Positions 9,563 through 55,049 of a stretch of DNA of 64,000 bases are shown in pieces. The notes under the pieces are model-generated. The model saw only the letters and a program-made list of their open reading frames with translations. It searched no databases and was not told the origin of the DNA. How positions within the stretch are numbered: the stretch's first letter is position 1; each line of letters opens with the position of its first letter. The position numbers and the translations under genes are program-made. The stretch spans positions 1-64,000 of the IMG/VR virus record IMGVR_UViG_3300031867_000007. One strand, given 5' to 3'. This stretch comes from a virus. Its lineage: Duplodnaviria; Heunggongvirae; Uroviricota; Caudoviricetes.

Positions 9563-10354
9563 ATGGATAATATATTTTTTAGTGTTATTATGCCTAATTA
9601 TAATAATGAAAAATATTTAGATAAAAGTATAAATTCAATATTAAAACAAGATTTTAAAAATTTTGAATTTATTTTTATAGATGATTTATCAACAGACAAT
9701 AGCGTGGAAAAAGCAAAAGAAATATGTAAAAATTATTCTAATACACATATTATAATTCCAAATCATAAGGTTTGAAATGGAGGAGGAAGAAATATTGGTG
9801 CGGCAGCCGCGAAAGGTCAGTATCTTATTTTTTTAGATTCAGATGATTGATTTGCAGATACACATTTCTTTTCAGTATTATATAATCACATTATTAATAA
9901 TAGCTATCCAGATTTAATTAGACTAACTTTTGATTTATTGACAAATACAAATGAAATATTACATATTCCGCTACAAGAAAAAACTATTAAAGAATTGGTG
10001 GATAGTTGTTTTGTAGCTTGCTGAACAAAGGTTTTAAAAAAAGAAAAATTTGTTCCATTTCCTGAAAATACTTTAATGGAAGATGTTGTTCAACATATAG
10101 CTATTTGTGATACAATATCTAATTTTACAATTTTAGATGATATTATTTCAGTAATTTATAATAAACAAAATGTTAATAGTTGTTCAGCTCAAGAGAACGA
10201 GCATTTGCAAAATGGAAAATGAAAATCTAGTATGTTTAGGTATTATGCAGATTTATATGATTTGCAATTAACTCATGACTATTGTGAAGACCATCGCCAA
10301 AGAAGATTAAGAGATGCAAAAGCAAATATAGATGCAGGATTAGCTATACAATAG
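9563..10354 (+). CDS. Family 2 glycosyltransferase
   Basis: Carries the motifs FSVIMPNYNNEKYL, FIFIDDLSTD and the DxD motif FLDSDD. Four TGA codons are read as Trp. AAGGAG RBS and ATG at 9563. Confidence 0.75.
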
Positions 10355-10363
10355 GAGATAAAT

Positions 10364-11470
10364 ATGGAAGAAGAATATTATACAAATATATTTTATTTTG
10401 ATAGAATAAATAAAATTGGCGGGGTTGAGACATTTTTTTATGAAATAGCAAAAAAATATTGCGATAATGATATTACAGTACTTTATTCTTATGGAGATAT
10501 GAATCAAATAAGAAGATTAAAAAAATTAATTAGGGTAAAAAAATATACTGGACAAATAATTAAATGTAAAAATGCTTTTTTTAATTATAGTCTAAAACCA
10601 ATAGATAATATACACGCAGAAAAATATTATGAAATTATTCATGCTAATTATGAACAAATACATATGAAACCTAATGTACATTCTAAAATTGATGAATATA
10701 TTGGAGTCAGTCAAGATGTTTGCGATGCTTTTACAAGAATTACTAATTTACCTTGTACATTATGTTATAATCCTATAACAATAGAAAAACCTAAAAAAGT
10801 TTTATATCTTATTTCTGCAACAAGATTAACAAAAGAAAAAGGAAAAGAAAGAATATTAAAATTTGCAAAAGCTTTAGATGATGCGGGGATACCATATATT
10901 TGAACTATATTCACTAATGATACTAAAGCCATTCAGCATCCTAGAATTATATTTATGGAACCGCAATTAAACATAAGAGATTATATAGCTAAATCAGATT
11001 ACACAGTACAATTAAGCGATACAGAAGCGTATTGTTACACAATGATAGAAAGTTTAATGCTAAAAGTTCCAATTATAGTAACACCATGACCTGTATTAAA
11101 AGAATTAAATATTGATGAAAAATGTGGCTTTATACTACCTTTTGATATGAGCAATATTCCTGCAAAAGAAATATATGACAAACAATTTAATATAGAATAT
11201 GAGTCTCCTAAAGATATTTGAAACAAATTTATTTATCATACAAAATCTACTTATAAAGAAGAATGTGAAGCATTATATTTAGTCGAAGCCTTAGATACAT
11301 ATCAAAAGAAAAATTTTATAGATATAGAATTGGGCTTTAAACCAAGTCCTGGTTCTAGATGAATTGTAACAAAAGATAGATTAGATATGCTATTAGGAGA
11401 AAATGACACTCAGGAAAAATATGCAAAACTTATTAAAAAATTAGATAAAAATGAAGCAGAGGTGATTTAA
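10364..11470 (+). CDS. Family 1 (GT4-like) glycosyltransferase
   Basis: The C-terminal EX7E-like motif EAYCYTMIESLMLKVPIIVT is present. The frame continues through the TGA at 10901 to the TAA at 11468-11470. Confidence 0.65.
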
Positions 11471-12225
11471 TGAATATATTAAGCTTAGATTTATCAACGA
11501 AAAGTGAAAAACAAATAACTGATAAAAAACAACTAGATGAATATAAAAATAAATTTGTAGTTTATTTACTTATTTTTCCCAATAATAAAATATATTGTGG
11601 ATATTCTTCAAATATAAAAAAAAGATGAAGGAATGAAGAAGGGTATAAAAATCAGTTAGTTTATAGAGCTATTAAAAAATATAAATGGATAAATATTCAA
11701 AAATATATTTATAAAAGTTTTAATAATAAACTAGAAGCTTTACAACTTGAATATAATATAATTAAAAAATATAATTTACAAAATCAAAATATTGGCTATA
11801 ATATAGCAGACGGCGGCGGAGACCCTCCGCATGGTAAAAAACATTTAACTGAAAAAGGTCGACAACAGTTAATACAAAATGGAAAGAAATTAGCTCAAGA
11901 AACTTGATTAAATCCAATTAGAAAACAATACGCAATTCAAAGAATGAAAGAAGAAACGCATAAAAAACGTATGTTACTATCAAAAACAGAACTAAAAGAA
12001 AAATACGGAAAACATAATATAGGTAGAATTCCTTCAAATGCTAAACAAATATTACAAATAGATTTACAAACTAATAAAGTATTAAATGAATATCCTAGCG
12101 CAAGACAGGCCGCTTTAGCATTAGGACTGGATGCAACTGCAGGAAGTAATATTCAAAGAACTGCTCGAGGGATTGGCAAAAGTGCTTATGGATATACTTG
12201 GAGGTGAAAAAATGAATGTACTTAG
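11470..12225 (+). CDS. GIY-YIG homing endonuclease with a C-terminal NUMOD/IENR-type DNA-binding motif
   Basis: Carries a GIY-YIG core (VVYLLIFPNNKIYCGYSSNIKKRW) and a C-terminal NEYPSARQAALALGLDATAGSNIQRTARGIGKSAYGYTW segment. The first 12 codons copy the ruvC start. Confidence 0.7.
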
Positions 12226-12718
12226 TCTAGATCTTTCAACCCATTCTAGTGGTTGAGCGTATTTTGAAAAAGAAGTGCTTAAAGATCATGGTTGTATTAC
12301 TTCTGCTTCAACAGATTTAATTAAAAGAATATATAAAATGACAGATGGAATTGCAGAAATTCTGAATAAATATAATGTGGATAAAATAATAGTAGAAGAA
12401 GTAAGACCTGAAGGCGGATATGGAGTAGGGAATACAAAAACGCATCGAGCTTTAATGTGATTACAAGCGGCAACCGCTTTTCTAATACATGATAAATATT
12501 CCAATATAGAAATAGAATATATATATCCAAGCTCTTGACGTGCTACGCTAGGTATAAAAAATGGAAGAGGAATAAAAAGAGTTTCTCTCAAAGAACAAGA
12601 CATAGAATATGTAAAAGAAAAATATAATATTATAGTTAATGATGATGAAGCAGATGCAATATGCATAGGTTTATCACAATATAAAGAAAAAGATAATAAT
12701 GAAATAAATTGAGAATAA
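12212..12718 (+). CDS. ruvC: RuvC-like Holliday junction resolvase
   Basis: Catalytic-pattern residues are present (LDLST, IIVEEV, NDDEADAICIG). Three TGA codons are read as Trp. GGAGG RBS. Confidence 0.65.
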
Positions 12719-12721
12719 AAA

Positions 12722-12750
12722 AAGAGATGGTGTTATTAACCATCTCTTTA
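12722..12750. terminator. Bidirectional hairpin terminator at the convergence of the plus and minus blocks
   Basis: The stem agagatgg is paired with ccatctct. Confidence 0.45.
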
Positions 12751-13323
12751 TATTTCTGATACTGTTTTAACTTCGGTTAATTGTGGAAATCTAGTTGTAA
12801 TTCATCTCTTTGCATTATTATCGGCAACTATAATTCTACAATTATCAGGAATCCCATTAAACATACTTGTAGATGTAGTAACATTATTAAAATTAAAATT
12901 GCGTATGTCTAAATTTAATAGAGCTCTACAATTTGCAAACATATAACTCATATCCGTAACTTTGGATGTGTTAAAATTGCTTAAATCTAAGCTTTTAAGT
13001 TGATTACAAGAGTAAAACATATATTTCATACTTGTAACATTACTTGTATTAAAATTAGATACATTTAATTCTTGTAATCCATTACAATAATAAAACATCA
13101 TATCCATTATAGTTAATTTAGAAGTATCTAAAGATGTCAACTCTTCATTTAGTTCAGCCCCTTTATACTCTCTAAAAGATATAAATCTAGGAGCATATAA
13201 GGTAGAAATTGCATCTATTGCTTCACTCATATCTTCAGGTTTATATTTAGCAGTACCACCAATCTTATTACGAATACTATTTGCAATATTAGTTAAATAA
13301 TCTTTTGTTACTAATACTTTCAT
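12748..13323 (-). CDS. BspA-type leucine-rich repeat (DUF285-like) protein
   Basis: Repeats of MxxMFxxCxxLxxLDLSNFNTSxVT are visible. The frame reads through the TGA at 12802 to the TAA at 12748. Confidence 0.55.
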
Positions 13324-25077: not shown

Positions 25078-25527
25078 TTACTTACTTTCTTCTTTTTTAT
25101 GAATTACTGATACTATTGGTAATGCTCTTATATCTTTCATAAAACCATCTATAAAAGTATTCCCATCTTCTTCTTTATAGTGTTTGTATCTAGCTTCTAC
25201 ACATTGAAGATTATAGTCATCAATATAGCCTAAATCATAACAAAAATAATGATGTTTTTCAGTAATCCAAGCCTTAATATCGTCTTTATCTGACTCTGTT
25301 AAAATATTAATTGATTTAGCCATTTTATCAATTTGTTTATTGTGTGATTCTAATGTATCTATTATCTTTTGATGTAATTCTTCTACTGATTGTTGTTTAC
25401 TTGTTGTTTTTGTTATTCTGTTTTTTGCTCAATCATAAAAATCAACAACACCTTTAATAGCAAATGCTAACATTACAATAAAAATAGCTATATCAGTTAA
25501 TGAATAATTTTTAAGTAAATCTAACAT
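25078..25527 (-). CDS. Small membrane protein with an N-terminal TM helix
   Basis: The frame extends upstream of the track start across TGA to the ATG at 25525-25527, which has a GGGGAGAG RBS. Confidence 0.4.
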
Positions 25528-25605
25528 TCTATATCTCTCCCCTATAATTCTCATAATTTTATCTAATAATATATAAGAGTTTAAGGAAGAAGATTAGATA
25601 AATTA

Positions 25606-26266: not shown

Positions 26267-28126
26267 TTACGAACTATAGCTATTATAAACTTCCCAGCTA
26301 GTACCGTTAAATATCCAACCTGCTCCTGTATTTGTACTCTTAGGTGATGAATAAACAATATCACCTTTTACTGCATCATTTGTATTTGTTGGAATAGTAG
26401 GTGTTATCATAATATCTTGGTCTTCATAACAAGATAAAAAATCTTTATATTTATATTCTTTTAGTACCATACCTGCTATTAATGAAGATGTTGTTGTACT
26501 TGGGTCATTCCAATGTATAAATGTCCATATTGCACCTATTTCTGTTGTTGGTGTTACTTCTATTCTTATCATTCTAGGCTTTGTTCTATCACTGTTAGTT
26601 CCTATTTGGAAATTATAATATGAAGTTGCAACACCTAAGTCATCAGAACGAACTGCTAAATATCCATTACTGCACCATGCATATATTTCTAATACCATTT
26701 TTTTGCCTACTAAATGTTTTGGAACTTTGTAATAGAAATATGAATAACCAGCTTGTTCTGTAGCAGTTCTCGTAAATGTAAGAACTTTACCACCAAAAGG
26801 ATTAGTTAAACTGCTATCAAATTCCATATGGTCAGCAGGGCTAGATATAATATAATCATTCATAATTGGATTTTTTAACGTTCCATTAATAACATAGTTT
26901 TTAATAGGCTTTAAACTCCTTAGTGGACTATAACCTTCCAATAAAACATAAGGGAATTGATTATGATTAGTATTTGCGGTTGAAGGTACAAATTTAACAT
27001 TATCTAAATAAATTTCATTTAAGTTACTATCACTATCGTAAATAGAAGATAAAGAATTTGTAATAGCATTATTAGATATAACTAATACTCCACCATTAAC
27101 AAATACTTTTGAACCTTTAGTATTACTTTTTAAATTAAATATTGATATTTTATTACCTGCCTGTTCATAATTTTGTGCAATTAATCCTATTGTACAATTC
27201 TCAAAATATGTTGTACTACCATCATTAGCATCTAATATTGATACATCTTCAGTCGTTGTTTTTGTATCACCAAAATATGTATTTTTAAAATACATTGTTC
27301 CTGAATTTTCAATACATTTTACATTATTTTCAAGACTGCATTTATCAAAACAAATAGTATTTGTATCAGTTGCAACCTCTTTGATTGCTAAATTACAAGC
27401 ATTAAAATGACAAGCATTGAAGTCTAATACACCTATCCAGTTGCTTGGAGATGAAGGATTTCCAATTTCAATTCCAGTTTCACCTGCTACCCATACGTCT
27501 ATAAACTCTGAATAATAAGCTGTTGGTAATTTCATTCCATACTTAAAACCATTTTGTATAAATACACTTGTTAATCTTTGTCTTTGACCTGGTGATAAAA
27601 TTCTTATAGCTGTTTTGTCAGAATAATTATTAGGATTTGCAATATTAATATTTTCTATTGTGCATTCATTATACATAACATCAATACAACTATCTTTATT
27701 TTCTTCTTGATTTATTGGTTTTGCACTATTTTTAGTTATTCCTGATAATTTAGTACTATAAACTTGAAAATAATTTGTAGTAGGTAGTTTTTCTCTTTGT
27801 ATTCCATTGCTAATAATTAAATTTGCATATAAACCATTACTTAAAGTTTCGTAGTAAGTACTTGAAGTTGATGCAATATCATATATTGCTCCGCCGTTAT
27901 CTCCTACTGTTGAATAATATTTTGTTAATACCATATCTCCAACTTTTAATTTTGTATCAGCTTTCATATCCACAACAGAGTTATAATAATAAGGTTTTTT
28001 ATTTAATTTATAAGCAACACTTTCACCATCTACATCAACATTTTGAGCTTCAGCGCCAATAGGAATATAGTCAGTAAAAGTTCCATCTTGCTTTTTAATT
28101 TTAATCTTTTTTATTAAATTTGCCAT
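26267..28126 (-). CDS. Tail fibre/tailspike paralogue 3 (shared N-terminal anchor, beta-helix-like C-terminus)
   Basis: The N-terminus MANLIKKIKIKKQDG...KKPYYYNSVVDMKADTKLKVGDMV is homologous to the genes at 29983 and 32094. AAAGGAGA RBS and ATG at 28124-28126. Confidence 0.55.
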   Translation of the reverse strand: MANLIKKIKIKKQDGTFTDYIPIGAEAQNVDVDGESVAYKLNKKPYYYNSVVDMKADTKLKVGDMVLTKYYSTVGDNGGAIYDIASTSSTYYETLSNGLYANLIISNGIQREKLPTTNYFQVYSTKLSGITKNSAKPINQEENKDSCIDVMYNECTIENINIANPNNYSDKTAIRILSPGQRQRLTSVFIQNGFKYGMKLPTAYYSEFIDVWVAGETGIEIGNPSSPSNWIGVLDFNACHFNACNLAIKEVATDTNTICFDKCSLENNVKCIENSGTMYFKNTYFGDTKTTTEDVSILDANDGSTTYFENCTIGLIAQNYEQAGNKISIFNLKSNTKGSKVFVNGGVLVISNNAITNSLSSIYDSDSNLNEIYLDNVKFVPSTANTNHNQFPYVLLEGYSPLRSLKPIKNYVINGTLKNPIMNDYIISSPADHMEFDSSLTNPFGGKVLTFTRTATEQAGYSYFYYKVPKHLVGKKMVLEIYAWCSNGYLAVRSDDLGVATSYYNFQIGTNSDRTKPRMIRIEVTPTTEIGAIWTFIHWNDPSTTTSSLIAGMVLKEYKYKDFLSCYEDQDIMITPTIPTNTNDAVKGDIVYSSPKSTNTGAGWIFNGTSWEVYNSYSS

Positions 28127-28230
28127 AGAGCATCTCCTTTCATTCATAAATAAAATTATCTGATTTTATTTCTAATACTATATAAAAAAAAGGGTAAATT
28201 AATTATATTAATCTACCCTTCTCATTATTT

Positions 28231-28635
28231 TTATTCTTTATTATTATCTGTATTTGAACTAATATTTGCCAAATTAGTAATTCCTTCAATTGCTTTTTTA
28301 GCTTGTATAGTAATAGTAGAAATAACTATTCCTAATATTCCAACACTTGAAAATGTATTCAAAACTTGATTTGAAATTAATTCAGTACCAAAAGAATTTG
28401 TAATCATTATATTGATAAAAGGTAATATGGTAAATGCTATTGATACAAAAGTAGCACTAATAAAAAATATCAAAACCTTAATAATACCTTTTATCATCTT
28501 TTTTCAATCAAATTTTTCTTTATTATTTCATATATTAACTAATGTTTGTGTTGTAATATTAACAATAGCAAGGATACCTAATACTATACCTAATCAGCCC
28601 ATTATTGTTAATGTATTTAAAATTGCTTCTCACAT
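28231..28635 (-). CDS. Holin (predicted multi-TM protein)
   Basis: The frame extends upstream of the track start across TGA to the ATG at 28633-28635, which has a GGAGG RBS. The product is hydrophobic with a charged C-terminus. Confidence 0.55.
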
Positions 28636-28709: not shown

Positions 28710-29651
28710 TTATCTAAATAAAGATTCGAATGTATTTTTTCCTACGATTCCATCTACACTTAATTTATTATCTGCTTGATAATTTTTAACTACATTCATA
28801 GTCTCATTTCCAAATATTCCATCAATTCCTAAATAATATTTTTTACAATATAGTATTGATTGAATAATTTTTGTTATATTTCCTTCTGCGCCTTGCTTAA
28901 CATTTCTGCAAGCCGCTTTTGTTTGATTTCCAAATATACCATCTACTACTAGTTCAGTTCCAAATTGTATATTTAATTCAGTTTGTAAGCCTTTTACAAG
29001 TGCTTTTTTAGTTTGACTACCATACAATCCATCTTCTGCAATATTTGTATTATAATTATTATTTAATCAATTTTGTACTGATCTTATTTTATCATCTCCA
29101 GTAGATGGCTGAGGCGTAGGCTGTGGTTGAGGTGCTCCGCCATCCAAAATAGTATTAACTGTATCAGCTAGTTCGTTCATTCTACTTAATAAATATGGAC
29201 CTGGACAATCTGTATTAGCAAACATATTATGTGTAGTTAAACTGCCGTTTGGTGTTCCATCATAATATAATCTGAAATTATATCTTCTACATACATCTAC
29301 TGCTAAATTAACTAATGTATTCCATGCCTTATCTGAAACTCTCCACTGTCCGCCTATTTCACAATTTGATACTTCTACTGTTATAGCTTGAAAATCATTA
29401 TTTCTACTTGATGACGTTCATGCCCTGTTTTCTTCTTCTACATTGCAAACTAAATCTCCTGCATTGCCTATACAATAATTAGCTGAAGCATTTCTGTTTG
29501 GATTTTGAAATTCATTAACAGCACATTGTTCACCAGACAATATCCCCGCCATCATATGTGGCGTAAATTTACATATTTTATAACCGTTTCTGCCTTTTGT
29601 ATAATTATTAAAGTGTGCTAAATACACGCTATTACATAAACTAGAATACAT
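28710..29651 (-). CDS. Endolysin: N-acetylmuramoyl-L-alanine amidase (Amidase_2/PGRP) plus three PG_binding_1 repeats
   Basis: Track ORFs 29418-29651 and 28710-29027 are in the same frame across seven TGA codons. Carries ASANYCIG...VEE..RAW...AITVEV amidase_2 motifs and GIFGNQT, GIFGNET and GIVGKNT repeats. Strong GGAGG RBS. Confidence 0.8.
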
Positions 29652-29955: not shown

Positions 29956-29988
29956 AAAAAGCTTATTCATTAAAGAATAAGCTTATAC
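29956..29988 (-). terminator. Rho-independent terminator after fibre gene 2
   Basis: The hairpin aagcttattc...gaataagctt has a T-run. Confidence 0.5.
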
Positions 29989-32064
29989 TTGAACACCAGT
30001 TGCATCAACCCACTTTGAACCAGTATACCAGATTGGTTTACCTAGGGTTGTATCAAAAAACATAATACCTTTACTCCAATTTGATAATACTGTAGGTCTT
30101 TCGCTTGTTGTTCCTAATAAAACTTGTTGTATTACTCCATAATGAACATCTCTCATATATTTAACTTTAGAACTATATATTGTATCACCTTTAGCAAAAG
30201 TACCTTGAATTGTCGTAACTGTTAGACTCGTTGATGTAATTGCTGTTATCGTTCCTGTTGCTCCATTATTGTTCGTTATTGTATCGCCTACATTGAATAC
30301 AAAACCACATTTTGTAGCCTCATTATCATATAAAATACTTTCAAATATTAAATTATTATTTGAAATATTACTAACTGGATTAACTATATAAATTTGATTT
30401 TCTAAATCTCTTTGCTGAAACATCGCAATACCTGTTTTATTATTGCCCTGATTTACAAATAAATCGCCAACTTTTCCATTTTTACTATAACTGTTATCGC
30501 TGTCAATGCCACTCATTGGTGAGTTGTAAGAATTAAATCAAATATTACCTTCTTTTACATTTTTGCCATTCAATGAGTAATCAGATAAATCGTAAAAATA
30601 ATCTGTAGAGTAAATTGGCGCCAGCGAGTATCTGTTTTGCGTATATGTGCCTCCTTTGTTATCATTATTGACAGTTAAAGTACACTCGCTTGAACCACTA
30701 TTTTTTGTTAAGAATTTATATTTTGAAGGTCTACAGCTGTTTAATATAATATTTGAATTTGTTCCAAAAGCTATAAATTTTCCAGGAAGATCGGCGTTTG
30801 CATTTCTTCCTAAGGAAACGGCAGTTAAATTTACCTTAGAACCATTTGAAACGATTAATGTAGCATTTGAATCTGTTGTATTTGCGTATAGGTATCCACT
30901 ATTTATATTAATTGTTGAATTCATAAAATATAGTATATTTAATGCTTTAGGACTCTCTGAACCCAACGAGCCAATATTGAAATTTGAACCCTCAAAATAA
31001 TATGCCGTATCTGTTGCGAAATCACAAGCAAGATTTCCTATATTAGAATAAACAACACCCACAAATTTAAATCCATTTTTACAACCAAGACAATATATCT
31101 CATTAATAAATAATGTTGTAGCATTCGTTCCACATATAAAACCAATTTCTGAACAATTATATATAAGTATTTTATTGAAAGTACATACTCAAATATTATT
31201 TGTTTTTATACCATATTTACAAGTCGATATACTAACATCTTCAATAACTGTTCTAGTACCTCCCACTTCATAATAAATGCCATAATCAGTTAACGAATTT
31301 CCATATAATTTAATATTATATACTTTTATATCTTCACAATAATTAAAATTTGAATTATAAGTCTTAAAATATAAGATAGTGTTTATATTATTATATTTAG
31401 AATTATTAGTTTTTATTAGTCTTGATCGGCTGCCTTCTAACTCTAATCCATTAAATAACACGATTGGGCCTTTAATATTATATTCATCTTGCTTATAAAT
31501 TTTTAGTTTTGAAATATTATTATTTAATGCATATTCTATCGCCTTGTTAAATATTGGAGTGTTATCTTCCAAATCACTAGATAATCCGATAGCATTCAAA
31601 TTTATTTCATTATCAATGATTAAAGTAGCATATAATTGATTTTCAAGCTCCTCTTGATAATCGGTTTGACTTTCAATACTTACTATCTTATATTCAGCTC
31701 CGCCGCCATCATTTGGCTCATAGTATCCAAGTGTAGTTACCATATCACCATTTTTTAATCTAGTGTCTGCTTTCATTTCTGCAACAGTATTAAAAAAATA
31801 GGTTTTCTTTTTGATATCTGTATTCAGAGTAATTACCTCTTCTTTTAAATCATCTACATCGCTATATAAACTGTCATATTTTTTATATTTCTTTAATTGT
31901 TCAGCTATGTTACCATCTTCATCAATATTAATATCTCCAATTGTATCTTGTAAATCTCTACCATTTTCCATATCAACATTTATCGAATCAACAGAAATAG
32001 TATAGGTTTCTTCACTAATTGAACCATCTGGATTTTTTATCTTAACAGTTTTAATTTTATCCAT
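29983..32064 (-). CDS. Tail fibre/tailspike paralogue 2 (693 aa)
   Basis: Track ORFs 31189-32064, 30538-31062 and 29983-30516 are in one frame across TGA. It carries the shared N-terminal module. GGAGG RBS. Confidence 0.55.
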
Positions 32065-32093: not shown

Positions 32094-33644
32094 TTAAAAG
32101 TAATTTGTGTCTAAGACTATTAATTGATATGCATTTCCCGAACTAATTGTGTATCTTATACACATATATAATTTATGTGCTGTTAATTCTGAGTCACCTA
32201 TAATAATATTATTTTCACCATCTACAAAATTAATTGTACCACCTTTATACAAAACTCCTATGAAAAAATAAGTTAGGTAAGGTGATAAACTACCAGAAAC
32301 ACTAGAATCATTAGACATTATATCAGGTAGAATAACTGTTAATGTTTTATTATCATCAACACCAGCTCTAATAAATAAACCATTATAACAACTGTCTATT
32401 GTTCTGTCATTATTATACAGACTAAGTTGTGGTTGATATAAAGGTTTTATATCAAACCAACCATTTTTTTGATAAACGGCTTCTTCTGATATGATTACTC
32501 CTCCTGCTCGCATAAACCCTATAAAATGAATAAATTCATTTGTACCAATAAATTCAAATAATGTTCTAGTTAAACCAGGCCTTACACTTTCCCATTTGAT
32601 AACATCTTCACAACAATTATTAAAGCTAAACCAATGCGAACCTGTAAAACTTTCTGTTGCTCTAAAATTTTTAAAAATATTACATTGTGTGTAATTTAGT
32701 TTAATACCAATACTTGAAATTCCTTCTAAACCAAAATTGAAGAATTTATTACCATTAAACCTGTCTGTTTGTTCTGTTCCCTTTTGTGTTTCGATTCCAA
32801 TAGCAGATGATATTCGACCACCATAAAATTGATTTTCGTTAATCCATGGGTTGCCATTATTACCGCATTTTAATAAAATTCCATGTTCCGTTGTATACAT
32901 GCTATTCCAGCTTATTTTGTTGTATTGTATACCTTTTGTATTATTTGATTCTAATATAATACCCTTTTTAGTATTTAAAATTGAACCCACGTTTAAATTC
33001 AAACTAGCTACTATATTCGTATCTGCTAATATATGAATACCATTTCCTATATTTGTAGATGTTATATGATTAATGTTAATATTAGCACCAGAAATATTAT
33101 CAATTTTAAAAGCATCAATATCATTTAATAATATAATATCTCCACAACTTTCAAAATTACATAGTGAGGTTCCAAACACCAAAGTAGAAGATATTGCATG
33201 GTTACCGTTACAAATTACTTTATATTTATTACTAGCTAAATTAATAGCTTTTTGAATAAAAGTACTATCATTAGTAATTCCATCTGCTTTAGCCCCCAAC
33301 TGTTTTGGATTTATTGTTTCATTAAGCAAAAGAGTAGCATAAAAGCCATTATTTAATAATTCTTGATGTTTAGATGTGTCCTGTGTGCTAACAATTACAT
33401 ACTCTCCTGAACCACTATCATTTGGCTCATAGTACCCTTCTGTAATTGCCATGTCTCCAGCTTTCAACTTTGTATCTGCTTTCATATCTGCAACACTATT
33501 ATAATAATATGGTTTTTTATTTATTTTATTAACCAAAGTTTCTCCATCTTCCATATCTATATGTTCAGCATCAACAGATAATGGAATAGAAGCGCTATAT
33601 GAACCATCTTGCTGTTCTAATTTTATATATTTTAATTTATCCAT
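32094..33644 (-). CDS. Tailspike with right-handed beta-helix (pectate-lyase-like) domain, paralogue 1
   Basis: Carries the shared N-terminal module plus NGNHAISSTLVF-type beta-helix repeats. GGAGG RBS. Confidence 0.6.
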   Translation of the reverse strand: MDKLKYIKLEQQDGSYSASIPLSVDAEHIDMEDGETLVNKINKKPYYYNSVADMKADTKLKAGDMAITEGYYEPNDSGSGEYVIVSTQDTSKHQELLNNGFYATLLLNETINPKQLGAKADGITNDSTFIQKAINLASNKYKVICNGNHAISSTLVFGTSLCNFESCGDIILLNDIDAFKIDNISGANININHITSTNIGNGIHILADTNIVASLNLNVGSILNTKKGIILESNNTKGIQYNKISWNSMYTTEHGILLKCGNNGNPWINENQFYGGRISSAIGIETQKGTEQTDRFNGNKFFNFGLEGISSIGIKLNYTQCNIFKNFRATESFTGSHWFSFNNCCEDVIKWESVRPGLTRTLFEFIGTNEFIHFIGFMRAGGVIISEEAVYQKNGWFDIKPLYQPQLSLYNNDRTIDSCYNGLFIRAGVDDNKTLTVILPDIMSNDSSVSGSLSPYLTYFFIGVLYKGGTINFVDGENNIIIGDSELTAHKLYMCIRYTISSGNAYQLIVLDTNYF

Positions 33645-38502: not shown

Positions 38503-41500
38503 CTATTTTCTTTTATTTGCTCTCATACTCGCCATATTTACTAAATTATTGAGAGCTTCTTCTATCTCTCTTGAATCTTTTACATTAGGGAATTGTGCAT
38601 CTATATGAACATTTTGTTCTAATACATCATTTCCAACATTAGCTCCAAAATTACCTGCGGTTACCGTAGCTAATTTTCCTAACATTGAGCTTCCTAATAA
38701 TCCAGTAATATTTCTTATAATATTTACTGCATTTAACATATTTGAGGTATCTTCTTTATTTAACACTAATTCTTTTTCATCAAGTAGTGCTAAACGACCT
38801 TCGCTACCTCACATTCCAGTATAACCACCAGTATCATATCTAGACAATTGAGATTTTTTAATCCAACCTAAATCTCTATATTTACCATCTGCACTATGAA
38901 TATGAATTCCATATGGGTTTCCATTAATTGTATCAACAACAATTCCATTTGCAACTCCAGAATATAGACTTCCTGCAGGAGTTGTTCCATAAGAATCATA
39001 ATAATATCTTCCATTATAAGTAGCTGTTTCTCCCAGTACAAGATTTCCATCACCACTTCCAGAACCAGCGCCACCGCCTCTATTATTTCCTGATCCAGAG
39101 CTAGAACCGCTACTTGAATTTGTATTTTGATTTCCTGTACCAGATTTTGCATTTTCTTTACTTGCGGCTGCAGCAGCTTGTCTTTGTTGTCCTGACCAAT
39201 ATTCATAAGCAGCTTTAGTTGCAGCTATTGCCGCATTTCTAGCAGAATTATATTTCTCAACTAATTCATCTAATTGATTTATTACATTTCCAATAGCAGT
39301 TAATTCATCTTCATAAGCATTAATTAATTCTTCATTATTACGTGTTAACTCTTGAGTTTTATCTATATTCGAATCAATACCTTCTCCAAGACTTTCAAAA
39401 TTAACTCTACCAGTTTCTTCTAATTCACTTAATCCATCTTCATAATCTTTAGTTGCTTCATGCAATTGTTCAAAAGATTGTTGACATACTTCTAAGAATC
39501 CACCTTCTCCAGCAAATACATCTGTCATATGTTGAACTCCAGATTCCCAATATGGTAATAAATCTCCCATAATTATTTCTTTTTCTTGGTCTGACATATT
39601 TTGGAAATTAGATGCATCTGTTTCATATAGTATAGCTAAATCATCAAATGCAGATTCAGTTAGATTGTTTCTAATTGTAGCATTTTGCTCTACTAATCCA
39701 TTAATTAATTCTCCATATTGTGTTTGTAATAATAATTCTTTTTCTGCTCTTAGTTCTGGATCATTAATTTGCGCAGCTTCCGCCATTTTTTCTTGGAATT
39801 CAACTCAAACTTCATACATTTGATTTAAATTATCTTGATATCTAGCTTTATCAAAATTATATAATGAATTATACATATCATTTAATTCATCTTGTAATTG
39901 ACCAATCTGATCTTCATCTGCAGTGTATTCATATCTATAATTACCTTGGCTATCTCTTCTTAATCTCATTTTTGTTTTATTTTGTTGAGCTTCTTGAAGA
40001 GCAATTTGTTTTAGAGCAATTTCATATTTTTTATTAGCTCTTTCAATATCATATTCAGTAAGTTTATCACGTTCACGTAAATCCGCAAGCTCTTCGTCCA
40101 TAATCTTTTTAAGTTGTCTTTGTGCGGAAATACTATCTGTATTATCAAGAGCATCTAGATATTTATTTTCAAGCTTTTGAACCTCGTATAATGAATTAAT
40201 TGTATCTAAATATTGGTCTGCATTTTTATTAATTAAGGTCCATTCTTCTTCTATATAATCAAGTCCTAAACCATCAGTAACTTTATTATTCAAATTTTGG
40301 AATATTAAATTAATTGCATTTAAATATTTATCTTGCAAGTTCTCAATAGAACTTTCAATTAAATCATTAAGTTCTCCAACAGCATCTTGTCATTTTTCTT
40401 TTGCATTTTCTCATGCATCAGAACCTTCATCAAGAGCATCTAATTGAGCTCTCCAAAAATCTACTTGTTGTCTTTGGAAATCTAATTGATTATTAAAATT
40501 TTGTTGTTGTTTATCATAGTATTTAGCTAATTGTCCATAAGATTCTTCTCCATAAACTAATGAAACAACTTGCATATCATGGTCTATTAAATCACTAATC
40601 ATTTCGTAAGACTTAATTTGTTCATCGAATTTTTCTTGAGCTTCATCCATCATGTCTAAATAAGATTCATGGATTTCTTTTTGTAATTCTAATACATCTT
40701 CAAGGTTACTCATTAACTCTTCATAATATTTCTTTAAATCATCTAATGCAGCAGTTCTGTTGTCTCCATATACACTAGACCATCCGCTATTATCCATTTG
40801 ATTTAATTCAGCTAATGTATTATCTACTTGTTTTCTTAATGCTTGGACTATACCAGTATTATCATCTTTATAGTAAGAAGAAAAGTCTACTAATCTAGCC
40901 ATTGCATTTCCAAGTATATCATCATCTTCAATTTCATCAATAATTTTCTTTTTGAAATCATTTCAATCTCTTTCAGCTTCAGCAAGATCTAATCTAATTT
41001 CAATTTCCATATCAAATTTTTCAATTTGAAGATCTATTTTTTCATCAATAGCATCTTGGATATCTTTTTCGAGTCCTGGAATTAAATCAGTTACAACTTC
41101 GTCATATCTATCTAAGTCTTTTGTAAATTTATCAAAATCTTTTTTTGCTTGTTCAATAGTGTCTTTATAACTTTCTTGAGCTTCTGCGCTCATATGATTA
41201 TATTCATTTATTAAACCGTTTACATAATTTAATTGTGAAGCATATACTTGAGCATAATTAGCAATAGTTCCATCAGCATTAAAAGACACTCCTTTTCCAG
41301 ACAACTTGTTTTTTAATTCAACTGCTTCCTCTTTAGCTATACCAATTTTTGTTGATGTTGTTCCAATTTGTTTATTTAATAAATCAAGGCGTTTATTTAA
41401 ATTAGAAATTAAATCTTTACCAAAAAGTTTCTTTTTCTGCTTATCTATTTTATCTAATTCAGTTTCAATACCTTTTAATTGAATATCAACGTCATGATAA

Positions 41501-44500
41501 CGATTAATTTCTTTTTCTAGCGGATCCATTTTATTTGGTTTTTTGGCGCTTCCGCCTCCACCGCCGCCCTTTTTTCCGCCTCCACCGCCACTAGACTTTC
41601 CTGGAGCTTTTCCACCTGAATTTTTTGAAGAATAGTTGTTAAAAGATCCACCAGGAGCTTTTTTAATTCCACTAATTTTAGGTTGTTTTCCATTGGTAGC
41701 TAAAGCCATAACAGGAACAGTAACATCTGTCTCTACTGGAGCTAAAGGTGTAACTGTATCTATTGCAGTATACTCAGGAACTTCAGTAACAGTTCCATCA
41801 CTAGATGTGAATTTTTTAGTTGATGCTGCAATTACTTCATGTTTTGTTTGAGTAGGAGTAATTGATTGTTTTTGTTGTATAGTATCTGTCTCATAAGTAG
41901 GTTCAATTCCTAAAGCACTAAATACTGCATTAGCTTGTTCAACTGTCATTTGACAATCTGTAATTAATTTATTTAATGCTTCTATAAAATGAGTATCATC
42001 AACAACAATATCTTGACCTATTACAAAGCCATTCATAGCCTCTTGAGCTTGTTCTCTTAAAGATATAAAATCAGCTAATAAACTCTCTTTTTGTTCACCT
42101 AGCTTATTATTTATAATGATATTAGTTATTATATCTTCACTTAAAGCATCTCTTAATCCTTCAATAGCATCTTCACTACCATTAGCTATCTCTTGAATAT
42201 CACTCAAATGCTCTTTAATAAAGCTATGAGAAATATAATCTGCTTCAGTGTCATAAACATCAGCTAATGCATTTTTCATATTATACATCGCTTCTGCATA
42301 TTCTTGACTAGCTACAGAACTTTCTTGAATTATATCAGTTCAATCTTCCATGTTATCAGCTAATGTTTCAATAGCTTTATTCATTTTAATAACTCTAAAG
42401 GCAAACTCTACCGCTGTATCTGAATCATATTTTAAATTGTCTCCAACAGACTGTTCAGACTCTGCAATTTCCATTAGATTTTTTGCATAAACTCTAATAT
42501 CATCTTCGTATTCTGCAAATTTTTTCTTACTTAAATCACTACCATATTCTTCAATATCAGATTTTTTTAATTCCATAGAACTAGCGATAGCATCATTAAT
42601 ATCTCATTTATAACTAGATAATGCATTTTGAAAATTTTCTGCAAACTGAGTTCCAGAATCAAAACCTAATTCTACAATTGCTTTATCATCTAACCCAAAT
42701 AAATTTTTAATACCTTCTTCATCTAAATTTTGTAACTCTTTTGCTTCATCTGGATTTAATCTACTAAATAAGCTTGATAAATCAAATTCTTTAGTTTTAC
42801 TTGATATTGCATTTGTAAGAGCTTGTGAAAAATCTGTTCCATATTTAGCTCCTGCTTTTGCAGCGTCTATTCTTGCCTGATTAAAAGTATCTAAAAAGCT
42901 TTGAGTATCAGTCTCCGCCTCAGCCTGAATTCTTGAATTTTCATAATCTCTTGCTAAATCTGAATATATTTGAGCACGCATTTTTGCTCTAGCATCTTTA
43001 TTAGATGCATCTAAAACTGCTTCTCCAGAATCATCTAAGAATTTATCACCTTTTCAAGTCTTTCCAGTAACATCAATACCCATTAATTGTGCATAAGCTT
43101 CTGCTAAATCCTTATTGCTATCTAGATTAGAACGACCTAAACGTTTATTTAGCTCTTCATCAGAAAGACCCTTTCTCTTTAAAGCATCTGTAACCTCTTT
43201 ATTTAAATTCTTATTAACTCCAGCAATCGCACCCATTAAACTTGAACCAGCAGCCCATTGACTGAACTCGTGGCTTCAAGCTTCTTGAGAAGTCAACTTA
43301 TCTCCTTTTAGATTTGCAGATTGATTATTTCTTCTTTCCTCAGCTTCTCTTTCTTTTCTAGTTATTTCTTCTTGAACTTTAGAACTATTTACTATATCTA
43401 ATATTTGTTGATATAAACCTTGATCTATCTGACCTGTTTTTGCATTAGTAGCCATACGCGCAATCTGACTACCATATTTCTCTTCTACAAAAATTTTATT
43501 TATTTCTGAATAATACCTTTTATTAGCTTCTGCTGCTTGTGTAGTACTTTCTGCTAAATCAATAAAAGCATTTCTATTCTCTGCAATTTGTTTGGCAAGA
43601 ATTTCTAAACCATGATTACCTTCATAAGTTTTTTTAACTCATTCTTCCATAGCTTCATTGCTATTTCTTACTTTATCGTATTGAATTTCATCTTCTTCTT
43701 TTAATTTTTGTAAAGATGATGTAATATCTGTAACTTGACTATTTGTAACACCAATATTTGCATTTAATACGGCTATTGGATCTTGAAGAGATTTAATATT
43801 TCTTATTAAATCTATTGGAGTAGCTTTTCCAACTTCTCGTCCAGTATCTGTTGTTTCAGATCTAATATTTGCTTCATTAGATTGTATTTTTGCAGCATAC
43901 ATTCTTTTTGCAGCTTCTTGTGCGTCAGCATTAATTTGACCTTGTAATTCTTCTAATGTACCTTTTTGAAAAGTTAATAAACCATTTTTATATTCAGCCT
44001 TGTCATATAAATTATATGTCTCCATTAATTCTTTTGCGGTTGCATTAGCTTTTTCTAAAGCCTCATTATATTCTTCTGTGCCTTGTTTCAAATCTTTTAA
44101 TTCATTTTTTGCATCATTATAGTCACTAATAGTTTTCTTTAATTCTTCAGCTTTATTTTTTAATTCCTCATATTGTTTAGTTAACTCTGCGGCATTTTTA
44201 GCAGCTTCTTTTGCGGCGTCTGCATCTTTATTATAAGCTTTATATAATGATATTCCAACTGCTACAACTGCAGCTATTGCTGCGGCTATTGCTAATAAAA
44301 CTAACCATAATGGGCCTAATGCAGTTTTGAAAGTTAATACTGAAATAGTAGCTTGTTTAAAGCTTAAGTCTGCTGCAGTTGTACCTGCTGTAACCGCACC
44401 CATGCCAACAGCTAAACTAGGCATTAAAGTTTTTATCGCTCCAAAACTTGTAATTAATATTGGTAATGTTGCTACTAATGTTGTTAATATTCTTTTAAAC

Positions 44501-46878
44501 TTTTCTCAACCAGTAAGATTATCATCAAAAATAGTAGAAACAATACCTGATAAAGAAGTAAATAAACTAACTAAAGCTGTTACTCCTCGAACTACATCAG
44601 AAATCGCTTTTTGTCTTTCAGCTTGAGCTTGCATTGTTTGTAGATTTTTTTCTCTTAAAGCTTGTTCATTTTGCAAATCTACTAATAAACCTGCTTCTTC
44701 ATCTGCTGCTCCTTTAGCAGCAATTTTTAAATTATTTACTTTATTATTTATTTCATCTCTAGTATTCTTTTGATTGTCTAAAATGAATTGTATTTCTTCT
44801 TCAGTAAGTTTTTCACCTTCTGCTACTTTTTCTGTTATCTCAGACAACTGAGCCATTTTTTCTTTACTCAATGTCATACCTTCTATGGCATCTATTAAGT
44901 CGATTTGAACTTGTAATTGTTGCTCATCTGTTTCAAAGGCATGCTCAGTTCCTTCTACATAGTCATCAATACCATTTTTAAGATTTTTATATCTTAGTGT
45001 TTCTTGAGTTTGTAATTCAGACTGCTTTGCTATTTCTTTTTCCAAAGCTTCTTGAGTATCTGCAGCAGTTTCTTTTACTTCTATTCCATATTGTTTTGCT
45101 ATATCTTTGTATTGTAAAATACCTTGAATACGTTGTTCTAATAGTCCAATTTCTGCAGTTTCATTCGTAAATTGTTTAGCTTGTTCTTCTGTTAAATATT
45201 TTTGTAATTCTAAAGTTTTTTCAGCATAAGGAATTTCTTTTTCTAGTGCCGCTGCATTTGTAACGCCTTCTCCAGCAACTCCTCCTTGAGCAATAATTTG
45301 TTTTTGGAGTTCCTCTCTACTTATATTAGCTCTCATTGCTTCTAAGTTTTCTATTTGTCTTTCAATAGAAGCGCCTATTTGTTTATTAAAAATATTTGCA
45401 ATTGTAGAACCAAAAAATGCAAAATCTTTTAGTCCTCCTCCAAGACCGGCTAACAAATCATTAAAAATACTTAATAATCCTGTTACAGCATCTGTCATAC
45501 CATTAACTGCTTTTTGATCAAATAATATATCATAAGTTCTTTCTGCTTCAGTACTTAATTGCTCTAAATGAGCTTTGGTACTCTCCATATATATATCTTG
45601 TTGTTTTTGTAATGTTCCTGCAGCATTAGCAGACATTTTTAAAGATTCTGTATACATATCTCAATTATCAAATAACGATAATAAATTATTATACTGTCTA
45701 GTACCAGCCATTGTTTGAGATAAAGCAATTTGTTGTTCTCTAGACATAGTTGTTCATTTTGCACCTATCTCTTCAATAACATCACCCATGTCACGAAGTT
45801 GATTATTTGCATCAAGAACATTTACTCCATATTGAGCCATTTTTTCAGTATAGTTTCCAAGAGTAGTTTCATCATCTAATCCAGATTTAATATCTGACAT
45901 ACGAGCATAAATTGTTTTTAATGCAACACCAACTGATTCTGGTGCCTGTCTAGTTACAGATACAATAGTAGCTAACTGCGCATTTAATTGATCAACATCT
46001 ACTCCCATTAAATTAGCGGCAGATGCAACTTTACTCATACCAGTAGATAGTTCTTCTAGATCTGCGGCTGTTCCTGCAGCTACCGCTGCTAATTTATCTA
46101 CATATAATTCTGCTTCATCAGCAGTAACCTTATAACCATTTCATACAGCAGTTAATTGTTCAGAAACTTCTCGTCCAGATTGACCAGTAACATTTGCTGC
46201 TTTCATAGTAACTTCAGCTCTAGCTTGAGCTTCTTCATCCCCTAAACCTTGTTGATAGTAAATTAAAGAAGCTTCAGTAAAATCTTTTGTTGAACGACCT
46301 AAATCTTTTGCAACTCTATTTGCTCTAGTTGCAAATTTATCCATTTCATCAGCTGATTTTTCTGTTACTATTCTAATATCATTTAAAGAAGTATCTAATT
46401 TAACTGTATAATCATAAGCTTTTTGAATATTGTTAGTCAAGTTATTAAAAACACTTGAAGAAATTCCATATCTAACAGTATTTTTAAAAGTAGTTGCCAT
46501 TTTATCTAATGTTGAGCTTGCTTGTTTTAACTGAACATTAGTATTTAAAACTTGCATAGCAAAATTATTATAAGCAGTTGCTCCAGAACTTCCACTTTTT
46601 ACTAATGCTTGTTGTAAATTTTGAACATTTCCATATGTATTTTTAATTCCTGTATTAACTTTACTTAAATCTAATTGATTAAGTTTATTATTTCAAGCAC
46701 TATTTAATATATCTTCTAATTGGTCCGCTGCTTTACTAGCTTCCTTTAAATCTTCCGTAAGATGTCCAGACATTTTTGCTTGTGCAGCTTCTAATCTTAT
46801 ATCTGTTAATTGACGTTTTATTTCATTTAAACTAGCTTTATCAATAGTATAACCAACTTTAATATTAACATTAGCCAT
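38503..46878 (-). CDS. Tail tape measure protein, 2,790 aa
   Basis: Thirteen track ORFs from 46693-46878 down to 38503-38766 are all in one frame, and every junction is TGA. The protein has extensive coiled-coil, a hydrophobic TM segment (LAVGMGAVTAG...LWLVLLAIAAAIAAVVAV) and a C-terminal SH3/peptidase-like region. GGAGG RBS. Confidence 0.75.
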
Positions 46879-53987: not shown

Positions 53988-55049
53988 TTAGAATGATCCG
54001 CCTTCAGCAACATCTTTTGTTAAAGAAGTGTTTCTGTAAACACAGATGTTGTTTGTAATTAACGCACCAACACCAAGTTTTCTATAAACTTGAATCTCTT
54101 TTGACCAATCATCATTTTTTCTATCGTCAACTAATGTTTGACCTTCAAAAGCAATTTTAACTGGTTTTTCATTTGATCCTGCTGGAATAATTCAAGCATA
54201 AGCTGGATCAATAACTTTCTCAGCATTAGTCTCATCAACTAATGATTGATTTAATACGATTACATTATGTCCTTTGTAGTTTGCTAAGTAACCATTATTC
54301 CATTTTTGGTCTTTCATTGCATCTGAAATCCATCCTTCTGATGGAACCATAGTTGCAGCAAATTCATAAGTACAATAAATAGTTGCTTTTCCATAGCTAT
54401 CTGCTACTGAAATTAATCTATCCATAGCTGTTTCATTAAATCCTGCACCAGCATATTTATTGTTTGTTCCTAAACTATCAACAGCACCAATTAATGCTTT
54501 TTCAATTTCTAGGTAGATAGCTTCATCTAATCCTTCCATAACAATATCAACTAATGTATTGAAATCTACTCTTCCATCTAAGAACTCTTCAATAGAAACT
54601 TGAGCAGCTCCACCAAAAGCTGTTGTTGGAACTTCATAACTTCTTCCATCTAGTTTAAACACTTCATAAACACCTGCTAAACCTACTTTAGTAATAAATT
54701 GTTTAGCTCTTCTTCTTGAAGCTGCGCTTACTTTTTGTCTGAATATAGCCTTATCACCTTGAGCAACAGTAGTTATTTCAGCAAACATACCATATTCTTC
54801 TAATACTCTTTGTGGAAGAATATCATCAATTGTTTCTTCTACTAAAGAGAAAATTATATGTTTATTTTGTTCATACTTGTGATAATTAATATTTCCTTTA
54901 TTATCACAAATCATATTTTTAAATTCATTTCTTAATGTTTCATTAATTTCTTTACCTGTAAAACTCTCTCCTCCTTCAAAAGAATAAGATGTAGAAGGTT
55001 TTGCAGTACTAGCAATTTTAGCTAATTTTAATAAATCTTTTAATTCCAT
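53988..55049 (-). CDS. Putative major capsid protein (353 aa)
   Basis: The gene follows the protease/scaffold gene. GGAGG RBS. The frame reads through the TGA at 54192 to the TAA at 53988. Confidence 0.5.

Follow-up and report, generated by a model that had tools for sequence, protein, structure and literature searches.

Gut phages in which TGA or TAG is recoded infect Firmicutes and Bacteroidetes that themselves use the standard genetic code (Borges et al., bioRxiv 10.1101/2021.08.26.457843; Nat Microbiol 2022). In these phages the recoding is concentrated in the structural and lysis genes while the replication genes are often standard, suppressor tRNAs are present in 35-40% of the genomes, TGA stops are depleted, and recoded prophages are found inside standard-code genomes (10.1101/2021.08.26.457843). 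The TGA-recoded members of the Agate clade, with genomes of ~127-154 kb from cattle, pig and tortoise, have intron endonucleases in their early genes, and their lysis cassettes include a recoded transmembrane protein annotated 'ATP synthetase B chain precursor' (10.1101/2021.08.26.457843).

The 64,000-nucleotide stretch of DNA analysed here (the window; positions 1 to 64,000 of IMG/VR record IMGVR_UViG_3300031867_000007) has a GC content of 28.5% and covers the middle and late regions of an SPbeta-like siphovirus genome of ~143 kb known from gut and rumen metagenomes. It is a further example of the phenomenon described by Borges et al. and not an open puzzle. The phage resembles the Agate clade in its size, gut or rumen origin and predicted Firmicutes hosts, in structural and lysis genes that use TGA for tryptophan alongside standard-code replication genes, and in having homing endonucleases in its early genes, a recoded transmembrane protein in the lysis region, a tRNA(UCA) (seen in its relatives) and stop codons that are nearly all TAA or TAG; this likeness is one of size, code pattern and habitat. 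It differs in that genes for nucleotide metabolism and glycosyltransferases are recoded as well. With the SPbeta-like siphoviruses (Bacillus subtilis SPbeta, H1/EF1 and E3) it shares the Yon/Yom virion families, a giant tape measure protein, a DNA polymerase III alpha of its own, a genome of ~135-143 kb and a TerL at 43-45% identity, but those phages use the standard code throughout. The uncultured human-gut siphovirus phAss-1 (proposed Phassvirus), of ~136 kb, also combines stop-codon recoding with suppressor tRNAs and a 3149-aa tape measure protein (PMC10607447), and its TerL is 43% identical to the window terminase; it recodes TAG (code 15) at 39% GC, however, whereas the window phage recodes TGA at 28.5% GC.

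IMG/VR contains more than 100 related contigs, 100-144 kb long, and several gut metagenomes of ENA and Logan contain contigs that are almost identical. Among GenBank phages, megablast returned a single match, a fragment of 12 kb from human faeces with 73% identity. An Rfam search of the window found nothing, and no integrase or other evidence of lysogeny was seen in the window phage.

The gene at 28710-29651, on the minus strand, encodes a 313-aa endolysin, identified by Pfam, PHROGs, its zinc triad and an AlphaFold model compared by Foldseek. Its frame, read from 29651 to 28710, contains only two interruptions, both TGA, and ends with a TAA stop. The first is at codon 78 ('NRA-W-TSS'; 29418-29420, minus strand) and the second at codon 195 ('VQN-W-LNN'; 29067-29069, minus strand), where the first peptidoglycan-binding repeat starts, and a table 11 reading splits the ORF into three pieces at these codons; a predicted endolysin peptide spanning a TGA codon is '...EEENRAWTSSSR'. 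The N-terminal Amidase_2 domain (aa ~12-175; PF01510, E=4.3e-12, 46.9 bits against a cutoff of 26), with predicted zinc MurNAc-L-Ala amidase activity, is followed by a Pro/Gln-rich linker (aa 176-184) and two PG_binding_1 repeats (aa ~185-313; PF01471 in two stretches, E=2.4e-23, 82.5 bits against a cutoff of 23). The best PHROGs match is phrog_7698 'endolysin' (E=1.4e-46). All 129 aligned homologues keep the zinc ligands H32, H141 and C149, and the H-x7-C spacing is that of T7 lysozyme. This protein (P0001) is also encoded, unchanged, on contigs of 142,554 and 143,829 bp, and it belongs to a family of 1922 homologues, many of them on recoded contigs.

The AlphaFold model, built with 24 homologues, has a mean pLDDT of 90.1 with disorder in linker residues 176-184 only, and adopts the PGRP/T7-lysozyme alpha/beta fold. 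Its best PDB matches by Foldseek are LysCS/LysC, AmiA, PlyL, XlyA and LysGH15 (target-normalised TM-scores of 0.60-0.77, with a probability of 1.00 for LysCS, PlyL, XlyA and AmiA), all of them endolysins or autolysins of the MurNAc-L-Ala amidase type from Gram-positive bacteria and their phages. The C-terminal half of the model resembles peptidoglycan-binding domains, and PDB sequence matches of the PG_binding_1 part include phiKZ gp144 and the N-terminal domain of SleB. The window endolysin thus has the fold, the His-His-Cys zinc site and the C-terminal wall-binding domain of PlyL, XlyA, LysCS/LysC, LysGH15 and S. aureus AmiA, but is only 11-19% identical to these solved amidases in sequence, carries two PG_binding_1 repeats where they have SH3, CW_7 or amidase-associated domains, and, unlike them, needs read-through of TGA. 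On sequence and modelled structure the product is a predicted cell-wall-cutting enzyme of the MurNAc-L-Ala amidase type.

Directly downstream, at 28231-28635 on the minus strand, lies a gene for a 134-aa candidate holin with four TGA and no TGG codons. It has hydrophobic segments at aa 9-27, 54-72 and 92-110 and a polar, charged C-terminus, and it fits the holin layout of a small protein with at least one transmembrane segment, a charged C-terminus and an endolysin neighbour; searches of Pfam and PHROGs matched it to no family. Its position and topology suggest that it acts as the holin. An earlier note on this DNA had named both an Amidase_2 plus PG_binding_1 endolysin and a holin; Pfam, PHROGs, the zinc triad and the fold all uphold the former, and the latter stands as regards position and topology but not as a member of a described holin family. 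A 158-aa protein encoded at 25078-25554 (minus strand) has one N-terminal transmembrane segment and a weak Pfam match to Mt_ATP-synt_B (E=6.7e-4, below cutoff), and by analogy with the transmembrane protein of the Agate lysis cassettes it may be a lysis regulator. The large tail proteins of the window have no Pfam domain, and no virion-associated lysin was found in them. Elsewhere in the genome of the window's own phage there are further wall-directed genes, encoding a 340-aa membrane-anchored Peptidase_M23 protein and a 259-aa SH3_3 protein (locus L202, 6234-7256 and 319-1098, respectively).

When TGA is left open, ORFs fill 94% of the window and include genes of 2791 and 1493 aa; with table 11 the window ORFs are fragmented and these two genes are broken up. 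There are 123 TGA and 77 TGG codons in frame, such that TGA makes up 61% of the tryptophan codons, and the two together account for ~1% of codons, a normal tryptophan frequency. TGA is the majority codon in both the plus-strand and the minus-strand modules, ~70% of the window genes hold an in-frame TGA, and no TGA stop was seen among the called genes. Codon 40 of NrdG, a TGA, sits in 'HNPETW' and aligns with the W of 'HNRDTWD' in E. coli PflA. The alignment column at endolysin codon 78 has W in 99, Y in 29 and F in one of 129 homologues, and that at codon 195 has 70 W, the remainder being A, V, T or Y. The codons of relatives aligned with window TGA codons are TGA (115), TGG (38) and others (seven), a further 20 window TGG codons align with TGA in relatives, and in these aligned codons the exchanges between TGA and TGG number 58, against about 15 other changes. 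Judged from these alignments TGA is a tryptophan codon in the window, and it is taken as tryptophan and not glycine because of NrdG codon 40, the column at endolysin codon 78 and the TGA-TGG swaps.

The region beyond the window was reached through TGA-free proteins and IMG/VR scans, and ~110 kb was inspected. Contig k141_233169 (ENA ERZ27256863) is 99.5% identical to the window, and NODE_20 (ERZ28436065; L066, also L207) is a 96%-identical relative; locus L202, on k141_233169, was found through a DUF2828 homologue (P0192), and L207, of the 96% relative, through P0235. Two DNA polymerase III alpha genes just to the left of the window (k141_233169) contain no TGA and 18 TGG codons, the small early genes beyond its right end (NODE_20, L066) contain two TGA and 20 TGG, and an early-like block of ~10 kb (L202 10001-19923, k141_233169) contains one TGA and 41 TGG. 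The polymerase and early genes outside the window, with 3 TGA/41 TGG, differ from the window with 123/77 at p=5e-12 (Fisher's test). A block of ~25 kb in an 86% relative, encoding gyrase/topoisomerase, ligase, helicase, primase and polymerase, has about four TGA and 57 TGG codons, and the PolIIIalpha genes of about 90 family members together have 19 TGA and 1559 TGG; TGA makes up 39% in TerL across the family.

TGA as a tryptophan codon is therefore absent or rare in the early and replication blocks, which is not the picture of a native, genome-wide code 4, and the arrangement is that reported by Borges et al., in which structural and lysis genes are recoded but early and replication genes can be read with the standard code. 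In this phage TGA stands for tryptophan in the middle and late genes alone, and recoding is partial, module by module. The earlier note's view of the window as code 4 agrees with the 94% ORF coverage and the 123 in-frame TGA codons, but its suggestion of a 'fully' TGA-recoded phage fails on the nearly TGA-free replication and early blocks. Long-term exclusion of TGA from the early genes implies that these are translated while TGA still terminates.

The anaerobic ribonucleotide reductase gene nrdD (537-2819, plus strand; PF13597, E=2.9e-149, with ATP-cone and Gly_radical domains; one TGA, three TGG) is the last gene of a nearly TGA-free block, and is followed by the gene for the NrdG activase (2812-3309, plus strand; Fer4_12, E=3.6e-38; three TGA, one TGG); these Pfam matches corroborate the anaerobic ribonucleotide reductase noted earlier. 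The recoded 'middle' module (2812-12718, plus strand) has 26 TGA and 12 TGG codons and encodes NrdG, a dUTPase, a ThyX-like protein, peptide deformylase, a Band_7/flotillin protein, GT2 and GT1 glycosyltransferases, a GIY-YIG endonuclease and a RuvC-like protein. Within it, the segment 7524-11470 groups the peptide deformylase (E=6e-36), a 507-aa Band_7/flotillin-like membrane protein and the GT2 and GT1 enzymes, all TGA-recoded. A DUF285/LRR_5 (BspA-like) repeat protein is encoded at 12748-13323, where both gene orientation and GC skew switch.

The genes of the late block are on the minus strand. The 583-aa large terminase (59202-60953; four TGA, one TGG), identified by tblastn, shares 43-45% identity with the terminases of Enterococcus phages H1/EF1, Geobacillus E3 and phAss-1 and with that of a large Alicyclobacillus siphovirus. 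The major capsid protein (53988-55049) is of the SPbeta-like YonB family (PF27364 YonB; phrog_4088, E=3.9e-66), and the 2791-aa tape measure protein (38503-46878; 15 TGA, eight TGG) matches PF10145 PhageMin_Tail on a near-identical contig. Pfam searches of contigs 96-99.5% identical to the window recovered the SPbeta virion families YonB, YonD_N, YonG_N, YomU, YomV, YomW and YomO. Three tail fibre paralogues, the first two of them fibre or spike proteins, flank the endolysin and candidate holin genes: a 626-aa product at 26267-28147 (no TGA, seven TGG), a 693-aa product at 29983-32064 (two TGA, three TGG) and a 516-aa product at 32094-33644 (no TGA, five TGG; PHROG tail fibre matches). The N-terminus of the first is common to the other two. 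At 61% TGA the chance of finding no TGA is about 0.001 for the gene at 26267-28147 and 0.009 for that at 32094-33644, and the presence of TGA-free paralogues in a TGA-rich late block suggests recent acquisition from a standard-code source.

A tRNA search found none in the window or its 10 kb flanks, nor up to 10 kb from the polymerase gene in 50 relatives. Relatives do carry a cluster of ~27 tRNAs and a tmRNA, and in at least ten family members, including the closest IMG/VR relative, this contains a 96-nt tRNA(UCA) directly beside tRNA-Trp(CCA) (copies at L201 13290-13385, L236 290-385, L244 533-629, L253 1245-1340, L257 8971-9066, L266 1638-1733, L230 13002-13098 and L329 6465-6560). It is 99% identical in two relatives whose flanks are ~72% identical. 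Its acceptor has A1-U72 and G73, as in tRNA-Trp, and its variable region forms a conserved, covarying hairpin whose 7-nt loop, CUCCAAA, is that of the tRNA-Trp anticodon loop. This extra hairpin copying the tRNA-Trp anticodon loop, seen in relatives and outside the window, may be new. ARAGORN labels the molecule 'tRNA-SeC', a label we reject because Rfam scores it as an ordinary tRNA and its acceptor features are those of tRNA-Trp.

In the window's own phage the tail of the cluster is present (L202), with tRNAs for His, Met, Pro, Asn, Gly and Tyr. Synteny with L329 places the expected tRNA(UCA) site ~2 kb upstream of the start of L207, and L202 likewise starts ~2 kb downstream of it; a search with a Pyr_excise fragment and a scan of JGI metagenomes did not recover this region of the window's phage. 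The synteny suggests that the window's own genome also encodes the tRNA(UCA). Inspection of ~110 kb revealed neither an RF1 nor a TrpRS gene. The inventory of tRNAs and release factors proposed in the earlier note thus yields a suppressor in the relatives, but no tRNA in the window or its 10 kb flanks and neither RF1 nor TrpRS. It is conceivable, although we think it rather unlikely, that this unusual suppressor itself performs the code switch, with the extra arm either mimicking the lost CCA identity element for the host TrpRS or allowing an alternative fold; if so, it would be a new route to a tryptophan-charged stop suppressor without a phage-encoded synthetase.

To relate the endolysin to possible hosts, we scanned one genome per GTDB species for endolysin relatives, which gave 60 loci. 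The 45 closest are 50-80% identical and lie in prophage-like loci of gut MAGs of 26-30% GC (rabbit, mouse and human), labelled coarsely as uncultured Clostridia, Clostridium or Bacilli, and some of the matches are on short, possibly mis-binned contigs. In these 45 loci the longest ORFs do not differ between codes 11 and 4, TGA is the stop of 12% of the long ORFs, tryptophan is encoded by 1405 TGG codons, and the endolysin homologues have no in-frame TGA. A prophage on a 281 kb contig (L004), in which the catalytic domain is 80% identical to that of the window endolysin, also uses the standard code. Isolated phages with related endolysins are all on Gram-positive hosts, and the phage GC content of 28.5% matches the 26-30% of the MAGs with endolysin relatives. 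Beyond the endolysin the MAG loci have nothing in common with the window, and no prophage copy, CRISPR spacer match or other direct link to a host was obtained. The L004 prophage ends beside a 133-aa MutS_I fragment (10982-11383) and may have inserted in or beside mutS.

On present evidence the most probable host is a low-GC Firmicute that is anaerobic, has a peptidoglycan wall and uses the standard code. The earlier view that the host has peptidoglycan and is not a wall-less mollicute is supported by the zinc amidase, the PG-binding repeats and the M23 and SH3_3 genes. Of the two explanations then offered, a recoded phage of a standard-code Firmicute is strongly favoured, and a walled code-4 lineage is unsupported.

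We regard it as highly probable that the window derives from an 'Agate'-like phage of a walled, standard-code Firmicute, with the code being switched during infection. The early and replication genes, using TGG, would be translated by the unmodified host ribosome. The phage tRNA(UCA), lying beside tRNA-Trp(CCA) in the cluster of ~27 tRNAs, would then suppress termination at TGA, and only after this suppression would the middle and late genes, including the lysis cassette, become translatable. The timing of the switch is presumptive; as NrdG, the deformylase (Def) and the glycosyltransferases are already recoded, it would come early in infection. At the end the holin-like protein would permeabilise the membrane, and the endolysin would attach to the wall through its two PG_binding_1 repeats while its zinc amidase cuts the MurNAc-L-Ala bond.

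An improbable alternative is that the host is an uncultured, walled, low-GC bacterium that natively reads TGA as tryptophan and whose code the phage simply shares. This would account for the TGA codons in ~70% of the window genes, for the 61% share of TGA in both strand modules and for the lack of TGA stops in the called genes, and it sits well with the lack of tRNAs in the window and 10 kb to either side; moreover, a tRNA(UCA) could be part of a large phage tRNA set even in a code-4 host. However, under a native code 4 at 28% GC mutation pressure would put TGA in every gene, so that its avoidance in the early and replication genes (19/1559 in PolIIIalpha, 3/41 in the early blocks) is left unexplained and argues against such a host. 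The bacterial-genome relatives of the endolysin are standard-code in 45/45 cases, and a screen of 250,000 genomes found reassignment of UGA to tryptophan only in Mycoplasmatales/Entomoplasmatales and insect endosymbionts (PMC8629427).

A wall-less mollicute host of the Mycoplasma or Spiroplasma type, in which the amidase would act on something else, is more improbable still. Phages of these bacteria also use TGA for tryptophan, but there TGA is expected genome-wide. The hosts have no peptidoglycan, and an endolysin combining a peptidoglycan amidase with peptidoglycan-binding repeats is unexpected in their phages. Code 4, the 28.5% GC content, the DUF285 protein (12748-13323) and one short homologue-bearing MAG contig labelled 'uncultured Mycoplasma sp.' would all be consistent with a mollicute; the gene on that contig, however, has eight TGG codons and no TGA, and the early genes of the phage are nearly TGA-free. 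The lysis cassette is of the Gram-positive type, with an intact zinc triad and two PG-binding repeats, and is accompanied by the M23 and SH3_3 genes, and the virion module is SPbeta-like, with all cultured relatives infecting walled Bacillota. The least likely reading, that TGA encodes glycine (code 25) and the host belongs to the Absconditabacteria/Gracilibacteria (CPR), whose phages do occur in gut and oral samples with about 90% of their genes recoded, is very improbable given the TGA codons at conserved tryptophan or aromatic columns, their exchange with TGG and not GGN, a TGA plus TGG total of ~1% of codons, and a suppressor with the A1-U72/G73 of tRNA-Trp.

If the phage is Agate-like and its host a standard-code Firmicute, an enzyme that degrades cell walls in a 'mycoplasma-code' genome is no longer a paradox: the code belongs to the late programme of the phage and not to the host. 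Lysis genes of a Firmicute phage are locked behind TGA, and the host can still read the replication genes. For such phages a host predicted from the genetic code alone would be wrong, and their contigs need two-code annotation, without which the endolysin is called as three fragments. The endolysin family is also a possible source of lysins active against uncultured gut Clostridia and Bacilli of low GC content.

Several genes of the window's phage and its near-identical contigs are interrupted. The nrdD gene is whole in the window, but in the 99.5% identical ENA contig is split (L070 5417-8664) by an insert of ~1 kb encoding a NUMOD/I-HmuI-like homing endonuclease. On the 99.5% identical contig the DNA polymerase III alpha gene is split by a GIY-YIG gene (L070 2118-2972), and a GIY-YIG endonuclease also splits the serine hydroxymethyltransferase gene of the window's own phage (L202).

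Structured RNAs were also found outside the window. Rfam matches in the window's own phage are a 'skipping-rope' RNA (59 bits) and an HDV-like ribozyme of the F. prausnitzii type (49.7 bits, gathering threshold 44), the sites of these two RNAs being L202 4700-4814, L202 18199-18272 and L207 4543-4657. The tmRNA of the family tRNA cluster (L201 8018-8426, L244 5530-5937, L257 987-1411 and L329 2636-3058) has tag peptides ANKVKSLFSFNRVSFA or GNLF..KVKSLFAFNCVAFA. Finally, phage tRNA clusters contain matches to the Rfam OLE RNA (RF01071; L201 17763-18155, L257 5822-6158 and L200 2387-2591), which score 85-109 bits against a gathering threshold of 50 and cover mainly the conserved 3' core; to our knowledge, OLE RNA is known from anaerobic Firmicutes and not from phages.
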